From: a virus | Taxonomy: Duplodnaviria > Heunggongvirae > Uroviricota > Caudoviricetes | Length of the DNA: 64,000 bases | Direction: 5' to 3' (one strand) | IMG/VR virus record: IMGVR_UViG_3300031998_000037 | Position numbers and translations under genes: made by a program | Shown here: in pieces, positions 1,985 to 55,492 of the stretch | Position numbering within the stretch: the stretch's first letter is position 1 | Layout: every line of letters starts with the position of its first letter | Notes under the pieces: generated by a model | Database searches by the model: none | Told to the model about the DNA's origin: nothing | Seen by the model: only the letters and a program-made list of their open reading frames with translations

Positions 1985-2920
1985 ATGGGATTTTTTTACA
2001 ACACAGAAAAGGAAACAGTTCGTGCAGGTCGTATTGTCGGCACAGTAATAGCAGGTGTTGCAGCATTTCTATTACTTACAGGTTCAATCACAAGAGTTCC
2101 CGTAGGCTCAGTAGGCGTACAGACTAACATGGCTAAGGTTACAGGTAACACATATAGTTCTGGTTGGTATTTCAAGATACCGTTTGCCGAGCACATGATA
2201 GATATGTCGATTCAGCAGCAGTCAATTGAATATCCTTCTATTCAGGGCGAACTCTCAGGCAAAGAGCTTATTAACATGACGCTTAAACTTACATATTCCC
2301 TTAATGGTGATAAGGCAGCAAGTGTTTATGAAAACTATGGTGAGAACTATATAACCACACTCATGCCGCAAGAAGAAGTGTTTGATGTTGTAAAGGGTAT
2401 TGTAGCAACATATGACATAGAAGATATCAGAACAAACCGTGCCGCTATAATGCAGCAAGCCGCTGACGGTTTACGCGAAAGATTTGGTTCAAGAGGTATC
2501 ACTATCACTTCACTGGCACTTGCAAATTATGATTTTGGTGATCTTGAAGCCTCTATTGATGCTGAGGTCAAGGCAAAGCAAGAACGCAAAACAGTTGCGG
2601 AACAGAATGAACTTGCAATTGAGGTAGCTGAAAACGCAAAGAAAGTCGCTGAAATTGAAGCTGAAAAAGCAGCGGAGGTCAAGCGTACACAAGCACAGGC
2701 TGATGCGGACGCGGCTAAAATCAAAGCCGAGGGTGAAGCTAATGCCATTAAGATAAGGGGAGAAGCTGAGGCTGAGGCAAATGAAAAGCTTGCAGCGTCT
2801 TTAACCCCTGAACTTATAAAGGCTAAAGAAATTGAACAATGGAACGGATCAAAGGCAACTGTAATTCTTGGTGAAAGCACACAACCTATAGTTCCTATTC
2901 CCGAAACAACACAAGAATAA
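1985..2920 (+). CDS. SPFH/band-7 (HflK/C, prohibitin-like) domain membrane protein
   Basis: N-terminal TM helix, SPFH-like core, then Ala/Glu/Lys-rich coiled coil; start moved to the ATG at 1985 after AGGAG, because the track start at 1931 would run through the palindromic motif. Confidence 0.6.
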   Translation: MGFFYNTEKETVRAGRIVGTVIAGVAAFLLLTGSITRVPVGSVGVQTNMAKVTGNTYSSGWYFKIPFAEHMIDMSIQQQSIEYPSIQGELSGKELINMTLKLTYSLNGDKAASVYENYGENYITTLMPQEEVFDVVKGIVATYDIEDIRTNRAAIMQQAADGLRERFGSRGITITSLALANYDFGDLEASIDAEVKAKQERKTVAEQNELAIEVAENAKKVAEIEAEKAAEVKRTQAQADADAAKIKAEGEANAIKIRGEAEAEANEKLAASLTPELIKAKEIEQWNGSKATVILGESTQPIVPIPETTQE

Positions 2921-2931
2921 AGGAGGACGTT

Positions 2932-3285
2932 ATGAGTAAGTTTATACGTACAGAAACTTATACATATCTGAATGAAGAATATTTTGAAAAGGGCGGCATC
3001 TATTATATCTACAACACTTTTGGCATGGAGTATATCGCTGTATGCACTGGCAAGAAGCCTGATGGTATACATCTTGTAAAAGTTTATAATTTGCCTATAG
3101 AGCAAAAGGACGAGACAGTTATTATACCAGACGATGAGATTATAATGAATGACAGCAATGTTTCATCATTTAAGACCTGTGAGAGAATTGAGCTTAAAGA
3201 AGATACCGACAAGTATGATCGCACAATTTCTTTCTTCTTTAAATTCTCTGCAAAGAAAGACGAGAAAAAGTCTGATGATGAATAA
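2932..3285 (+). CDS. hypothetical protein
   Basis: ORF with RBS AGGAGG. Confidence 0.35.
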   Translation: MSKFIRTETYTYLNEEYFEKGGIYYIYNTFGMEYIAVCTGKKPDGIHLVKVYNLPIEQKDETVIIPDDEIIMNDSNVSSFKTCERIELKEDTDKYDRTISFFFKFSAKKDEKKSDDE

Positions 3286-3884
3286 GAAAGATTGGACAGG
3301 CAATAAGACTTCTGTATTCTCTACATTAGCTGCAAGTAGTCATTCAAAAGATGATAGAGCAAATGACGACTATTATTGTACCCCCCCCCTATGCGGTTGA
3401 GGAACTTCTAAAACGTGAGACATTCAGCACTTATGTTTTAGAGCCTTCCGTTGGCGGAGGGCATATTGCAGAAGTCCTTGAAAGAAACGGTCATAAGATA
3501 CAAGCCTTTGATATTGTAGATCGTGGATATAACAAAACAGAAGTAAGGGACTTCTTAAATGTATCAAAAGAAGATGTCAAGTTTTCCCCTGATATCATCA
3601 CAAATCCTCCATATGCTTTGGCAAAAGAATTTGTTGAACACGCACTTGATATTTCTATGGACAGCACAAAGGTTGCAATGTTTCTTAAAATACAGTTCCT
3701 TGAAAGCAAGAAGCGGTATGAATTATTTAAGAAATATCCACCACGAAAAATATACGTGTTTGTTAACCGCGTTAATTGTGGTAAGAATGGTGTTTTTGGC
3801 AAAGAGTCAAGTGCTGTATGCTATGCATGGTTTGTATGGGTAAAGGGTTATAAAGGCTGTCCACAGGTAGATTGGATAGCATAA
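3275..3884 (+). CDS. phage Dam-family N6-adenine DNA methyltransferase, interrupted by a frameshift at a C9 tract (3381-3389); C8 would give the intact protein
   Basis: N-part 'DDYYCTPP' is in frame 2 and the C-part '...DIITNPPYALAKEF...' in frame 0, joined only across the poly-C; close paralog of the intact ORF 14571-15167. Confidence 0.7.
3381..3389. repeat. poly-C homopolymer (9 nt) inside a methyltransferase gene; candidate slipped-strand phase-variation tract
   Basis: seen in sequence; GC homopolymers this long are otherwise very rare in this AT-rich window. Confidence 0.8.
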
Positions 3885-3895
3885 GGAGATATAAG

Positions 3896-4318
3896 ATGAA
3901 AGTTTATAGAGTTGAAAACCCAAGTGAAGAACATGGACTTTGGCGCAACTTTGACGGTTCTCCATGTGATGTTTTTGAAAAACTTAAAGTTGGCAAATGT
4001 CGTGAAATGCCGATGCCCGATAATGATTTTTATAGGCGAGAGGGAAAGCGTTGGTTTTCCGCAACTGATGCTCCTGAAAAATTAAAGGCATGGTTTGATG
4101 TCTTTGACGTTATACAACTTTGTGAATTAGGGTATAAGGTTTATGAATTTGAGGTTGAATATGCTAAACCTGTAAATGAGTTTGAAGTTGTTTTCACGCG
4201 AGATTTAATTACTTCGTCAACTGCCATTGAACCATCTACTATTTGGAATGATTATGATACGGCAAAAAAATTTTTGACTTGTTGTTGCTGTGACTGTGAG
4301 GATTGTTATGCAAATTAA
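3896..4318 (+). CDS. hypothetical protein (C-terminal Cys cluster CCCCDCEDC)
   Basis: ORF; start placed at the ATG after AGGAG. Confidence 0.35.
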   Translation: MKVYRVENPSEEHGLWRNFDGSPCDVFEKLKVGKCREMPMPDNDFYRREGKRWFSATDAPEKLKAWFDVFDVIQLCELGYKVYEFEVEYAKPVNEFEVVFTRDLITSSTAIEPSTIWNDYDTAKKFLTCCCCDCEDCYAN

Positions 4319-5453
4319 TTGTGATAATGCTGCACAAAAGCCTTTAACCGAATCAGTAAAGCGAACCATAGTTAACTTTATTGATAATGAATTTGGCAAT
4401 CCTTCATCTATATATTCTAAAGGGCGCAACGCTAAACGTGCTCTTGAAGAAGCAAGAAGTCAGATTGCAGAATCAATAGGGGCTGACACAGACGAAATTT
4501 ATTTTACAAGTGGTAGCACCGAGGCAATCAACTGGCTTTATCATTCAACCAACAAACATATTCTGATTTCACCTATAGAGCACAAAGCTATTCTAAAAGG
4601 GAATGAAAATTATGATGGTATCTCTTACGGTTTGGACGTTAAACAAAATGGCGTTATAGATATTGAAAAACTTAAATATCTTTGTAATTGGGTACATGAC
4701 GATGGGGTTGCTATCATAGGTTGGGTAAATAATGAGATCGGTACAATTCAGCCTATAAAAGAAATAGCTAATATTTGCCACGCAAAAGGCGTTGAACTAT
4801 TCGTTGATGCTTCACAAGCTATCGGGCATATACCAATTAATGTGCATGAAATCGGGATGGATTATATGTGCGGTTCATTTCAGAAAATAGGCGGTTTGGC
4901 TGGTAGCGGTTTCCTTTATATAAAAAAAGGCAAAGGGTTCAATCCTATGTTATCTGGCGGATCACAAGAACGCGGCATGAGAGCTGGGACTGAAAACCTT
5001 TTAGGGGTAATGTGTGGTGCAACCGCGATATCCGAAGCAACTAAAAATCTAAGTGATAAAGTCTCCAGACAAAAAGAAATTCAAAGCAAAATTATCTCTG
5101 AACTTCTGAAACTCCCCAAAACACATTTGAATGGCGACTTATGTAATAGAGTTGCAAGCAATGTGAATATATGCTTTGAGGGTATTGAGGCTGAAAGTCT
5201 TGTGCTTCTGCTTGATTTAGATAATATTTGTGTTAGCAGTGGCTCTGCCTGTAACTCAGGTGATGTTAAGCCCAGCCATGTTTTGAAGGCGATAGGTCTT
5301 AGTGATGATAATGCTAAAGCAAGTATACGTATCACCTTTGATGACATGACGGATGATGAAATTGATTATCTTGTAGAGCGAATAAAGGCAAGAGTTAGTC
5401 AGTTAAGAGATATGTCCCCTAAATGGAAGGAGATATTCAATGCAAGTAATTGA
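4308..5453 (+). CDS. cysteine desulfurase (IscS/NifS family, class V aminotransferase)
   Basis: aligns along its whole length with IscS as recalled from memory: 'FTSGSTEAINW', 'NNEIGTIQPI', PLP lysine in 'SFQKIGG', 'SGGSQERGMRAGTEN', catalytic Cys in 'SSGSACNSGDVKPSHVLKAIGL', 'SIRITFDD..EIDYLVERI'. Confidence 0.8.
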   Translation: MQINCDNAAQKPLTESVKRTIVNFIDNEFGNPSSIYSKGRNAKRALEEARSQIAESIGADTDEIYFTSGSTEAINWLYHSTNKHILISPIEHKAILKGNENYDGISYGLDVKQNGVIDIEKLKYLCNWVHDDGVAIIGWVNNEIGTIQPIKEIANICHAKGVELFVDASQAIGHIPINVHEIGMDYMCGSFQKIGGLAGSGFLYIKKGKGFNPMLSGGSQERGMRAGTENLLGVMCGATAISEATKNLSDKVSRQKEIQSKIISELLKLPKTHLNGDLCNRVASNVNICFEGIEAESLVLLLDLDNICVSSGSACNSGDVKPSHVLKAIGLSDDNAKASIRITFDDMTDDEIDYLVERIKARVSQLRDMSPKWKEIFNASN

Positions 5454-11330: not shown

Positions 11331-11570
11331 ATGAGCTATTACTGCGAAGTTTGCGGTCATATAGGTGGTCACGCTTACGGCTGCCCAGAAGCACCATCGC
11401 CCAAACCTGTAACATATTGTACCTACTGCGATGAGCCTTTATATATCGGTGATGAAGCTTATCAAGCTGGTAATGATATTTATTGTGCTCAGTGCTGCGG
11501 TAGGATTGAAATAGAAGAGCCTGAAAGAGACTGGGATTTTGAGATAGATAAAAGGAGAGAGAATGAGTAA
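11331..11570 (+). CDS. small zinc-binding protein (multiple CxxC)
   Basis: CEVCGH, CTYCDE, CAQCCG. Confidence 0.35.
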   Translation: MSYYCEVCGHIGGHAYGCPEAPSPKPVTYCTYCDEPLYIGDEAYQAGNDIYCAQCCGRIEIEEPERDWDFEIDKRRENE

Positions 11571-12515
11571 CGAAAATCTAAGAATGGCACGAAAGATTAA
11601 GAATGATGAGTTCTATAGCCGCTATGAAGATATAGAAAAAGAGCTTGTCCATTACAAAGATCAGCTACGCGGCAAGATTGTTTATTGCAACTGTGATATT
11701 CCTGAGAGCAACTTTGTCAAGTTCTTGAATGATGTCAAAGACGAATGGGGCATTCAAGATGTATGGCATACCTCGCTTGACGAGGGTATAAGCTTTGATA
11801 GTGATTATGCGAAAGACTTACTAAGCAAATGTGATGTGGTCATAACAAATCCTCCATTTTCAATCACAAGAGAAAGGTTCGTTCCTATGCTTGAAGAAAG
11901 CGGCAAACAGTTTCTCTTTATAGGCAATCTAAATATGGCAACTATGCGAGAAATATTTCCGCTGATCCGTGACGGCAAACTATGGACAGGCTATACGCAC
12001 CCTAAAGAGTTCCTACAGCCAGATGGCACATACAAAAAGTTTGGTAATTGTTTATGGTGGACTAATATGCCTGTAGAAAAAGAGTTTAGGCTTGACACAT
12101 CAAAAAAGTATTATGGTAATGAAAGTAAATATCCTCACTATGATAATTATGATGCCATTAATGTTGATAGAGTTGCTGATATTCCTTCAGATTATTCAGG
12201 CGTGATTGGCGTACCCGTTACGTTCATTGAACATTATACCCCCACCCCGACAAGATAGGAGGGGACTTCGGCTCAGTATTGTCGGATTTAGAAAGGGAGC
12301 AGACGGCAAAGACCTTCACGCCAACGGAAGATATTATTACGGCAGATACCTTATCGTTATTGGATCATAGATGTGATCTATATAACGAAGTAGGTAGGGG
12401 GGGGTACGACATACATACTTCCATCGCTTGCTCATTAAGAGTCGTTGACGCATTGAACTGTCCAAGTTTAAATAATGAAAAGATATTTAAAAGATTAATG
12501 ATAAGGAGATTATAA
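11563..12515 (+). CDS. N6-adenine DNA methyltransferase (NPPF motif), split by a frameshift at a C5AC4 tract (12239-12248); also carries an in-frame G8 tract (12397-12404)
   Basis: 'CDVVITNPPFS' motif IV. The frame-1 ORF stops at 12258, but frame 0 is open from 12231 to 12515, so a +1 C would fuse them to ~317 aa. Confidence 0.55.
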
Positions 12516-12517
12516 GA

Positions 12518-13044
12518 TTGAGCTTTTCAGAGTCGATAAAGACAAGCTTAGGAGGAGATGAATATTATACTCCTTCTAATGCGGTAGAAATGATTTTACC
12601 TGTGCTGCGCAAGCATAATTTTTCAAAAGTCTGGTGTCCATTTGATACTGCCGAAAGTAATTTTGTTGTAAAACTCAGCAAAGAATTTGAAGTAGTATAC
12701 GGTCATATTTATACTGGACAAGATTTCTTTGAATATGATACCCCCCCGAAGGTGTGGAATGTGTAGTAAGCAATCCGCCATTTAGTAAAAGAAATGATAT
12801 ATTTAAGAGGCTGTTTGAATGGGATATACCTTTTGCTCTTATTATGAATATGAACGGCATCTTTGATAGCAAAGAAAGATATGATTTGTTTAAAGATAAA
12901 CAGGTTGAGTTCTTTATACCAAAGGGTAGAATGAAATTCTTTACGCCTGATGGTGTTACAAAAAACTCGCCTAATTTTCAGAGTATTTATATTTGCAGTA
13001 AATTATTAGATAAACAACTTGAATTTTCTGAAAGTGAATTTTAA
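12518..13044 (+). CDS. phage Dam-family N6-adenine DNA methyltransferase, interrupted at a C7 tract (12741-12747); C8 would restore the frame
   Basis: N-part 'EYYTPSNAVE...YDTPP' (frame 2) and C-part 'ECVVSNPPFSKRNDIF' (frame 1) meet only across the poly-C. Confidence 0.65.
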
Positions 13045-13769
13045 AGGAGATGTAATGAGTAATATACAACTTTTTCAAGGGGACTGCTTGGAACTTATGA
13101 AAGATATACCAGACAAAAGTGTGGATTTAATTTTGACAGATTTACCTTACGGAACAACAGCTTGTAAGTGGGACAGCATAATTCCATTTGATTTACTATG
13201 GGGGGGGGTACGACCGTATCATAAAAGACGATGGTTGCATTGCTTTGTTTGGTAGCGAACCATTTTCTACGATGTTAAGATATAGCAATCTGAAGCATTT
13301 TAAATATGATTGGATATGGGAGAAAGAACAGGGTGCTAATTTTATGCTTTGTAAATATCAGCCCTATAAAGTACATGAAGTCATTTCTATCTTTGGCAAT
13401 AAGAAGATGCGTTATTATCCGCAAATGACCGCTGGCAAACCTTATATATCAGGCAAGGGTACAAGTGGTGATATTACAAACAATGTACCAAAGATACAGA
13501 CAGTTAATTCGGGTACAAGATATCCGCGAAGCATTCAAAAATTTAACACTCAAAAAAATCACTCGGTTCATCCAACTCAGAAGCCAGTGCCACTACTTGA
13601 ATACCTTATTAAGACCTATACAATTGAGGGTGACACAGTATTAGATAGTTGCATGGGCAGTGGCAGCACGGGCGTAGCTGCCGTCAATACAAATCGCAAC
13701 TTTATTGGCATGGAACTTGATGAGAAATATTTTCAGATTGCACAAACCAGAATTAAGGAGGCAACATAA
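13019..13769 (+). CDS. beta-class N6A/N4C DNA methyltransferase, interrupted at a G9 tract (13200-13208); G8 would restore the frame
   Basis: 'LILTDLPYG' motif IV first, then 'HPTQKP', then 'CMGSGSTG' motif I at the C-terminus. N-part 'FDLLWGG' is in frame 2 and C-part 'GGGYDRIIKDDG' in frame 0. Confidence 0.7.
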
Positions 13770-14570: not shown

Positions 14571-15167
14571 ATGGGCTTAACCGCAGCGAAGCTTGCTGGC
14601 AGTGATCCGACAAGAGGCAGAATGAAGAACGATTATTATGCTACCCCTCCCATTGCGACTGAACTTCTTTTGAAAGAAGTGAAACTATATGATGATACTA
14701 TTTTAGAACCAGCAGCAGGTGAAGGTCATATTGTTAAAGTGCTGAAAGAATTTTACCCTTATAATGAGATAACAGCTAATGATTTAGTTTACCGCAGTAG
14801 TCGTATAGGCATTGATGTGAACGGCGGCATAGATTTCCTTACATATGAACCACACCGCAAATTTGATACTATCATTACAAACCCACCTTTTAATCAGGCA
14901 AAAGAGTTTATTGAGAAAGCATTGACGCTTGCAAATCATTACGTCATTATATTTGCCAAGCTTCAATTTCTGGAGACTGTTGAACGCCGCAAGCTGTTTG
15001 ACGAATATCCACCTAAGTATGTTTATGTACATAGCCGTCGTGTTAGCCCGTATATAAATGGTGATCCTGTAGATGAAAAGGGTAAGCCGTGGGCAAGTCC
15101 TATGGCGTTTGCTTGGTTTGTGTGGGAGATAGATTATGAAGGAGAGACAACATTAAGATGGTTATAA
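14571..15167 (+). CDS. phage Dam-family N6-adenine DNA methyltransferase (intact)
   Basis: 'DYYATPP' and 'TIITNPPFNQAKEF'; paralog of the 3275-3884 gene. Confidence 0.7.
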   Translation: MGLTAAKLAGSDPTRGRMKNDYYATPPIATELLLKEVKLYDDTILEPAAGEGHIVKVLKEFYPYNEITANDLVYRSSRIGIDVNGGIDFLTYEPHRKFDTIITNPPFNQAKEFIEKALTLANHYVIIFAKLQFLETVERRKLFDEYPPKYVYVHSRRVSPYINGDPVDEKGKPWASPMAFAWFVWEIDYEGETTLRWL

Positions 15168-54706: not shown

Positions 54707-54934
54707 AATTCAAAAAAAACGGTGTAGGGGTTCGCACACCGCAAAGCGAAAATTGTATCATTCGCTCATGCCCACGTACTTTGCATACGTTTAGACGTAA
54801 ATCGGGGTTATGAGCTATACAGCAGTTTTATGTCCTCTGCAAGACATGGTGACGATTGCGAGACTTGAACTCAGCATTGCGCCCGTGAAAGGGGCGTGTC
54901 CTACCTTTAGACGAAACCGCCACAATAATGCGCA

Positions 54935-54956
54935 CGTTTGCATTGTCCTGCAAACG
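54935..54956. repeat. inverted repeat CGTTTGCA-N6-TGCAAACG, flanked by direct repeats ATAATGCGCA (54925-54934 and 54959-54968)
   Basis: seen in sequence. Confidence 0.6.
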
Positions 54957-54986
54957 GTATAATGCGCATTGTTGCAAGCCGAAAAT

Positions 54987-55020
54987 CAAAGTATCGTTTG
55001 TGCGCACAAACGATACTTTG
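54987..55020. repeat. 34-bp perfect palindrome CAAAGTATCGTTTGTGC|GCACAAACGATACTTTG
   Basis: seen in sequence; both halves are exact reverse complements. Confidence 0.85.
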
Positions 55021-55284
55021 CAAGAGGTGCTTACAAAGCTCTTTTCATGGTTATTAAAGTAAACCTCAATAACCTTTCAACAATATCTTCCTTGAACTGG
55101 CAAGGACACCAATCTAAATGCTCGTAAAGAGCTGAGTATTAAAGACCTTGCGTGGGACACTTCTACGAGAGGTGTGCAAGGTTCTTCTCAGTGAGCTTTT
55201 TTATTTTTATAAGGACGTGGCTCTACGTCCTTATCTTCTGAGAAAACATAGCTTTTGCAATATAACGTGTTCGATGTTATACTA

Positions 55285-55358
55285 TTGGTTGCAGCTCTTA
55301 GAATCGAACTAAGAACATAAGGGTATGAACCTTATATGATACCATTTCACCAAACTGC
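55285..55358 (-). tRNA. tRNA-Met/fMet-like (anticodon CAT) with a C1-A72 mismatch
   Basis: manual fold: acceptor CGCAGTT/AGCTGCA, D-arm GTGA-AATGGTA-TCAT, anticodon arm TAAGG-TTCATAC-CCTTA, 4-nt variable loop, T-arm CTTAG-TTCGATT-CTAAG, then ACCA. Confidence 0.6.
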
Positions 55359-55416
55359 GGCATGACAGGTTAGTTATAGTCCAACCTTCACGAATGACTT
55401 CTCCCGTCAGGAGGAG

Positions 55417-55492
55417 TGGTGTCAAAAGCAGGGGTTGAACCTGCGACCTTCGCCTTATCAAGACGCTGCTCTGCCAACTGAGCTATTCTGAC
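55417..55492 (-). tRNA. tRNA-Ile (anticodon GAT)
   Basis: manual fold: acceptor GTCAGAA/TTTTGAC, D-arm GCTC-AGTTGGCA-GAGC, anticodon loop TTGATAA, T-arm GCAGG-TTCAACC-CCTGC, then ACCA; 76 nt. Confidence 0.75.

Follow-up and report, generated by a model that had tools for sequence, protein, structure and literature searches.

Nine cytosines in an orphan methyltransferase gene of an uncultivated phage: a probable ON/OFF switch, one of four in methylase genes of a single genome

In bacterial phasevarions, a repeat within a methyltransferase open reading frame (ORF) toggles the frame as its length changes, and ON and OFF variants are found within one population; examples include cj0031 of Campylobacter jejuni, a phase-variable Type IIG enzyme with a polyG tract (PMC4889913), and the mod genes of Haemophilus, Neisseria, and Helicobacter. 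A comparable device is described for phage T2, where ±1 frameshifts in the A9 repeat of agt (alpha-glucosyltransferase) revert ~1000-fold faster than a point mutant, and where switching trades off TgvAB, which attacks modified DNA, against McrA/BC, which attack unmodified DNA (Gomez, Barrick and Waters 2025 preprint, PMC12633550). As cited in that preprint, polyG tracts also occur in the receptor-binding genes of Campylobacter Fletchervirus phages (Sorensen et al. 2021) and in a methylase gene of the Bordetella phage BPP-1 (Liu et al. 2004), the latter, according to the same source, not studied further. Here, we analyze a 64,000-nucleotide stretch (the window) of the virus record IMGVR_UViG_3300031998_000037, part of a ~100-kb uncultivated phage genome, in which a run of nine C's (C9) breaks the reading frame of a DNA methyltransferase gene designated MT_A. 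No nuclease or specificity subunit was found adjoining MT_A.

Based on comparison of sequences, we interpret C9 as a hypermutable simple-sequence repeat, i.e., a slipped-strand contingency locus, in a phage orphan methyltransferase gene, and as one of four ON/OFF methylase switches that would together produce combinatorial methylation states. We assign this interpretation a probability of roughly 75%. The locus shares with the phasevarions a repeat in a methyltransferase ORF whose length toggles the frame. It differs in that the methylases are orphans with no nearby nuclease partner, are phage-borne rather than chromosomal, and number four in one genome, and in that the presumed target is the phage's own DNA, for counter-defense, rather than a host regulon. 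Phasevarions are built on Type I or Type III restriction-modification methyltransferases of a bacterial chromosome; because the genes described here are orphan and phage-borne, they are not members of that class, although their control works like that of mod and hsd repeats. With T2 agt, the locus shares a homopolymer in a phage DNA-modification gene. The T2 repeat, however, is an A run, common in an AT-rich genome, whereas rare G/C runs are concentrated in methylase genes here; the modification is methylation rather than glucosylation, several independent switches are present, and the evidence is comparative where that for T2 is experimental. Fletchervirus and BPP-1, as described in the citing preprint, likewise have G/C homopolymers that shift frames, BPP-1 being a single earlier case in a phage methylase gene; the Fletchervirus tracts govern host-range proteins, and neither, in that account, has a multi-gene methylase set. 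The switch set fits a class proposed only recently, that of phage contingency loci, and is set apart from those described so far by G/C runs targeted to DNA-modification genes, several switches per genome, and a device that recurs across a methylase family. Literature searches returned no account of multi-methylase G/C-tract switching in phages.

The tract comprises exactly nine C's in the context gta CCCCCCCCC tat (Table 1). From the ATG at 3275, the frame reads MMNKKDW...DDYYCTPPLCG and ends at a stop codon at 3398-3400; a first-pass annotation made from the letters alone had given the DDYYCTPP peptide correctly but placed the stop directly after it, where three codons (LCG) intervene. The other frame reads PPPYAVEELL...EPSVGGG...NPPYALAKEF... 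through to a stop at 3882-3884, as that annotation had described, and its statement that the tract splits a methyltransferase gene agrees with both the bases and the two frames. Removal of one C does yield the contiguous protein that it had proposed, a single ORF of 202 amino acids. In the lineage of the window, C8 is in frame, C9 is shifted by +1, and C7 by −1. The best database match of the restored protein, P0001, is 96% identical to it from end to end, and full-length relatives, of ~200 amino acids each, number in the thousands. The restored protein aligns colinearly with MT_E, an intact paralog in the window (39% identity, E 3e-35), so that the common order of motifs already noted for the two holds.

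Table 1. Methyltransferase genes and homopolymer tracts in the window
Feature	Coordinates	Strand	Description
MT_A, 5' part	3275..3400	+	OFF-frame segment given by C9, from the ATG to an early stop; codes for residues 1-38, with motif X (DDYYCTPP), and closes with LCG and the stop codon
C9 homopolymer	3381..3389	+	Codons Thr36-Pro37-Pro38; lengths 7, 8, and 9 found here in sister contigs
MT_A, 3' part	3390..3884	+	Motif I (EPSVGGG), motif IV (NPPY), C-terminal region; reading frame differs from that of the 5' part
MT_B, EcoRI-methylase family	11563..12370	+	Pfam PF13651, E 4e-63
G8 tract	12397..12404	+	In small conserved ORF 12279-12515, which overlaps the 3' end of MT_B in the third frame; in frame here
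MT_C, short EcoRI-methylase-like	12518..13044	+	Split at C7 (12741-12747, ..YDTPP/EGVECVVSNPPFS); PF13651, E 4e-6
MT_D, N6/N4 beta-class methylase	13055..13769	+	Pfam PF01555, E 6e-29; split at G9 (13200-13208, ..DLLWGG/YDRI..)
MT_E, intact MT_A paralog	14571..15167	+	No tract (TPP = ACC CCT CCC); phrog_799, E 7e-59

The tract is an unlikely product of the base composition and codon usage of this phage. The window has a G+C content of 37.7%, and in its genes Pro is encoded by CCC in 10% of cases, Gly by GGG in 7.6%, and Thr by ACC in 11%; given the rarity of CCC and ACC, ACC-CCC-CCC is an improbable spelling of Thr-Pro-Pro. Under an order-2 Markov model, 0.42 G/C runs of at least 7 would be expected in the 64 kb and four were observed, a number reached in 0 of 200 simulations, and two runs of at least 9 were observed against 0.015 expected. 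No G/C run of exactly 6 is present in the window, and all four runs of at least 7 sit in or beside methyltransferase genes. Among 80 IMG/VR homologs (47-71% identity), the T-P/D/E-P positions are spelled in mixed codons, and the longest C run is 2-4. C9 was also found in three further assemblies of the window strain (ENA ERZ27257204, Logan SRR9008937, and Logan SRR9008936), one of which aligns to the window across 13.9 kb at 99.986% identity and has no gaps. Together, these data indicate that the C9 tract is neither chance nor a one-off error.

Three further methylase genes, 8-10 kb downstream of MT_A, are also broken at tracts of their own, which argues for a multi-locus switch set rather than one broken gene. 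The frame of MT_B breaks at a composite tract, C5-A-C4 (12239-12248), and runs to a stop at 12256-12258, while its canonical C-terminal sequence is found in the +1 frame, up to 12370. MT_C would read YDTPPEGVECVVSNPPFS in frame with C8 in place of C7, and MT_D would read DLLWGGYDRI with G8 in place of G9. All four genes, MT_A through MT_D, are thus OFF in the window, and no second lesion was detected in any of them; of the five methylase genes, only the tract-free MT_E is intact, and it is presumably always expressed.

All close relatives, referred to below by contig number, were retrieved from ENA and Logan through look-ups of exact proteins; scans of IMG/VR and Joint Genome Institute (JGI) metagenome contigs for a pattern of the tract and its flanks returned no match. 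For MT_A, the window strain is OFF with C9, and in sister contig L183 (Logan SRR32209725) a C8 tract goes with an intact ORF of 202 amino acids, which corroborates the earlier proposal that C8 is the ON state. L091-L097 are OFF with C7. L191 is also OFF, with C9; it is 99.1% identical to L091, and the sole gap between the two is the tract itself. In a sublineage with CAT (His) instead of TAT as the next codon, C9 is ON (L081) and C8 is OFF (L082-L084), and the interrupted tract ACCCCTCCC (ACC CCT CCC) of L098 leaves the gene ON. Among distinct database sequences with at least 90% identity, full-length and truncated forms are about equal in number.

The other three genes also occur in both states. 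MT_B, OFF in the window with its composite tract, is ON in L183 with G-C4-A-C7 (269 amino acids) and in L086 and L184 with no tract (272 amino acids), and is out of frame in L098 with C8. MT_C is OFF with C7 in the window and L098, ON with C8 in L179, L180, and L184 (175-177 amino acids), and OFF and split with C9 in L183. MT_D is OFF in the window with G9, ON with G8 in L179-L181 (236 amino acids), and OFF and split in L183 with G7; L182 and L184 have no tract at this position (L182: TGGGAAGGG) and are ON. The window and L183, 95.5% identical across 13.9 kb, differ by 11 small indels, of which only four shift the frame without nearby compensation, and these four are the tracts of MT_A, MT_B, MT_C, and MT_D. 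The A8 and A9 runs have the same length in both. Similarly, L091 and L092, which match at 99.988% across 17 kb, are separated by a single gap; it falls at a G9/G8 tract within a C5-methylase gene, where the difference turns two ORFs into one. As in contingency loci, then, uninterrupted G/C tracts of at least 7 (C9, C7, and G9) lie within ORFs, and their lengths differ among near-identical genomes as the main or only frameshifting indels.

A further property of contingency loci, an otherwise intact gene under purifying selection, was also observed for MT_A. The ratio of nonsynonymous to synonymous substitution rates (dN/dS, Nei-Gojobori) is 0.03-0.18 across alleles. Pairs in which both alleles are OFF gave 0.09 (window versus L082), 0.03 (window versus L091), and 0.03 (L082 versus L091). 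Constraint that extends to the OFF/OFF pairs indicates that MT_A is not simply a dead gene.

Tracts also recur within the family. In other sublineages, the MT_A ortholog has no C tract and carries a G tract in motif I (VGGG) instead, with G9 in L099 (ON), G8 in L184-L190 (ON), and G7 in L085 (OFF); a C tract at motif X in one sublineage and a G tract at motif I in another imply at least two separate origins of tracts within a single gene. In a set of 160 diverse loci with homologs (L001-L080 and L099-L178, drawn from very diverse phage and metagenome-assembled genome [MAG] contigs), G/C runs of at least 7 occur at 0.39 per kb within the gene and at 0.030 per kb in the flanks, a 13-fold difference, and the recurrent tract codons are Pro-Pro and Gly-Gly(-Gly). 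Tracts recur in homologs at two sites, motif I, with G9 in CGGG, and xPPV around residue 98, with C8. Where homologs are split into two frames, a homopolymer lies at the junction in 9/9 cases and a G/C run of at least 7 in 5/9. Arrays of G8-G11 tracts were also seen in some homolog neighborhoods (L115, 3954-5464; L139, 15508-17743).

With respect to enzyme class, the restored MT_A matches phrog_799, "DNA methyltransferase," in PHROGs (E 1e-64). No Pfam family was matched at E ≤ 0.01, Dam profiles PF02086 and PF05869 included, no NCBIfam methylase match was obtained, and a PDB sequence search gave no family; MT_A was therefore classed through PHROGs and a structure model. The motifs run in the order X (YYxTPP), I (EPxVGGG), and IV (NPPY), followed by the C-terminal region, and in a 31-sequence alignment R28, D32, Y33, Y34, and T36 are invariant, as are N110 and P111. 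An AlphaFold model (pLDDT 85.9) has as its best PDB matches M.TaqI, M.BseCI, and CamA, all of the gamma class (against 1aqi, E 3e-8 and TM-score 0.63 over the query). MT_A has the motif order of gamma-class enzymes (X, I, IV, the last as NPPY), its modelled Rossmann fold matches theirs, and it is accordingly predicted from the model to be a small, minimal M.TaqI-like amino-methyltransferase. It shares motif order and structural match with these three N6-adenine DNA methyltransferases but has only ~200 amino acids, lacks their large separate target-recognition domain, and is 15-18% identical to them. The first-pass annotation had termed the gene "Dam-like," which stands loosely, in the sense of an orphan amino-methyltransferase; membership in the Dam family itself (alpha class, GATC) was rejected, as no profile matched, the order X-I-IV is not that of the alpha class (motif I, target-recognition domain, DPPY), and no Dam fold was found, with Dam absent from the top 50 PDB structure matches.

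Several considerations weigh against a set of active switches. All of the evidence comes from consensus assemblies; L091, L093, and L094 are 100% identical, and several contigs may have been assembled from samples that another contig already represents, so that independent observations are fewer than contigs. Methylase activity, target motifs, and the fitness trade-off of the switch genes are predictions. In addition, the MT_B tract, being already interrupted, should switch slowly, and the joint OFF state of all four genes in the window, together with the uniform C7 in the seven L091-type contigs, also fits recent inactivation. These last three observations are what would be expected if the genes were decaying pseudogenes, i.e., accessory methylases irreversibly lost through homopolymers that are mere mutational weak points with no switching role. 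We consider this unlikely. Decay leaves unexplained the lack of a second lesion in four genes, the low dN/dS (0.03-0.09) between alleles that are both OFF, and the retention of a perfect tract at rare codons. It is also difficult to reconcile with in-frame alleles on near-identical backbones (L183 and L081), with +1 and −1 states on one backbone (L191 versus L091), and with tracts that arose independently at two motifs of one gene.

An explanation we regard as quite improbable is programmed recoding, whereby the C9 gene would be expressed through +1 ribosomal frameshifting, with peptidyl-tRNA-Pro on CCC_C, or through slippage of RNA polymerase, and the break would set the expression level. Runs of about nine identical bases are known to promote transcriptional slippage, and the shift that C9 would need is precisely +1, on CCC_CCC_C with CUA next. 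In the low-GC Listeria phages PSA, A118, and A500, rare CCC codons do serve as +1 shift sites (PMC5009743). The required shift is not conserved, however: sister contigs need −1 (those with C7, and those with C8 in the His lineage) or none (C8 in L183 and C9 in L081), L098 and more distant orthologs have no slippery run, and most orthologs lack it. Moreover, no Shine-Dalgarno-like stimulator was seen just upstream of C9. Recoding may add at most leaky expression on top of switching at the DNA level.

A sequencing or assembly error, in which the true tract is C8 and the gene intact, is highly improbable even though homopolymers are classic sites of indel error and C9 was read from assemblies, since four assemblies, which derive from at least two runs and were built with two pipelines (MEGAHIT k141 and Logan), agree on C9, tract length agrees in 10/11 cases between the 99.988% identical L091 and L092, the A8 and A9 runs are free of discrepancy, and long genes elsewhere in the window are intact, such as an ORF of 2007 amino acids.

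For the contingency-locus interpretation, we propose the following mechanism. During replication by the phage's own PolIII-alpha-type replicase, slipped-strand mispairing would add or remove a base at a tract, often and reversibly, and we infer that each phage population would hold ON and OFF variants for each methylase. MT_A in its OFF state probably has no activity, since the invariant motif X residues R28, D32, Y33, Y34, and T36 are missing from the C-terminal fragment. Four switchable genes together with a constitutive MT_E could give up to 16 methylation patterns. The pay-off would be bet-hedging: methylation would guard against host restriction-modification and expose the phage to methylation-dependent (Type IV) restriction, and the best pattern would vary by host strain. 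By analogy with T2 agt, hedging between hosts with restriction-modification and hosts with Type IV systems is a likely function.

Several observations concern the region past the MT_B tract, where the third frame stays open for ~96 codons (12228-12515). A conserved ORF is present there in L086 and L098 (..GITEENGKGLS..HAYVNGKRIYTRLF..VDALNCPSLNDEKIFKRLMIRRL), and in L098 the gene caller joins it to MT_B as a protein of 344 amino acids. The window has a deletion of ~57 nucleotides and G8 in this region; L183 has G9, and the total length is equal. This frame could represent either an overlapping small gene or an alternative C-terminus set by tract length; since it is open also in the tract-free L086, it may simply be an overlapping small gene.

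Other DNA-modification genes of the group also carry tracts. In L091 (15399-17712) and L085 (12774-14913), six to eight short units that look like target-recognition modules (RIYS..GGG..PTL) come after a C5-cytosine methylase (PF00145). Every unit has its own G8 or G9 tract, and the tracts are ~140-400 bp apart; one of these tracts is the sole difference between L091 and L092. The gene looks like a multispecific methylase with one switch per specificity module, and such per-module switching, if true, would be more unusual than the MT_A finding. A PAPS-reductase-family (DndC-like) gene with C8 tracts is a single ORF of 398 amino acids in L085 (7671-8867) and is split in L091-L095 (7371-8724), and a NifS-like cysteine desulfurase gene (4290-5453 of the window) lies two genes downstream of MT_A. 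The presence of the NifS-like and DndC-like genes hints that phages of this group may have a second type of DNA modification, based on sulfur.

As for the wider genome, the window encodes structural genes, a terminase, three tRNAs, and a replication and nucleotide-metabolism block; the tRNA genes (Glu-TTC, Met-CAT, and Ile-GAT) lie on the − strand at 54847-55492. The terminase is distantly related to its counterparts in Firmicutes phages, with an identity of only 25-31% to the terminases of Thomasclavelia, Bacillus, and Clostridium phages, and searches of GenBank phage DNA (distant mode with 2900-4400, near mode with 40000-64000) returned no match; the phage has no close relative in culture. 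Relatives come from human-gut metagenome assemblies and from MAG bins labelled Eubacteriales or Clostridia; the host is probably among gut Clostridia. In L091-L097, a tyrosine integrase gene lies right after MT_A (e.g., L091, 10523-11476), and the window has none there, so that members of the group may differ in lifestyle. An A9 run at 1966-1974, just upstream of the Shine-Dalgarno sequence and ATG (1985) of a Band_7 (SPFH) gene, is A6 in L098, a difference that may be a spacing variant affecting expression or may be neutral.

Phage contingency loci were proposed experimentally only recently, for T-even phages, and the present set offers a natural, multi-locus, metagenome-wide example. We tentatively suggest, at somewhat less than even odds, that gut phages may routinely place each DNA-modification gene under its own G/C-repeat switch, including orphan adenine methylases, the target-recognition modules of multispecific C5-cytosine methylases, and, in relatives, DndC-like PAPS-reductase genes. 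A single burst would then release a combinatorial epigenome library of 2^n patterns, a viral counterpart of the phasevarion that probes unknown host strains for their restriction and anti-modification defenses. In viromes, "frameshifted" methylase genes should be neither labelled pseudogenes nor edited as if they were errors, and virus-host linking based on methylation could mislead. Phage methylases are usually seen as fixed armor against restriction enzymes; if they are instead stochastic switches, the host range of a gut phage would be a property of the population, set by the states of its repeat tracts.
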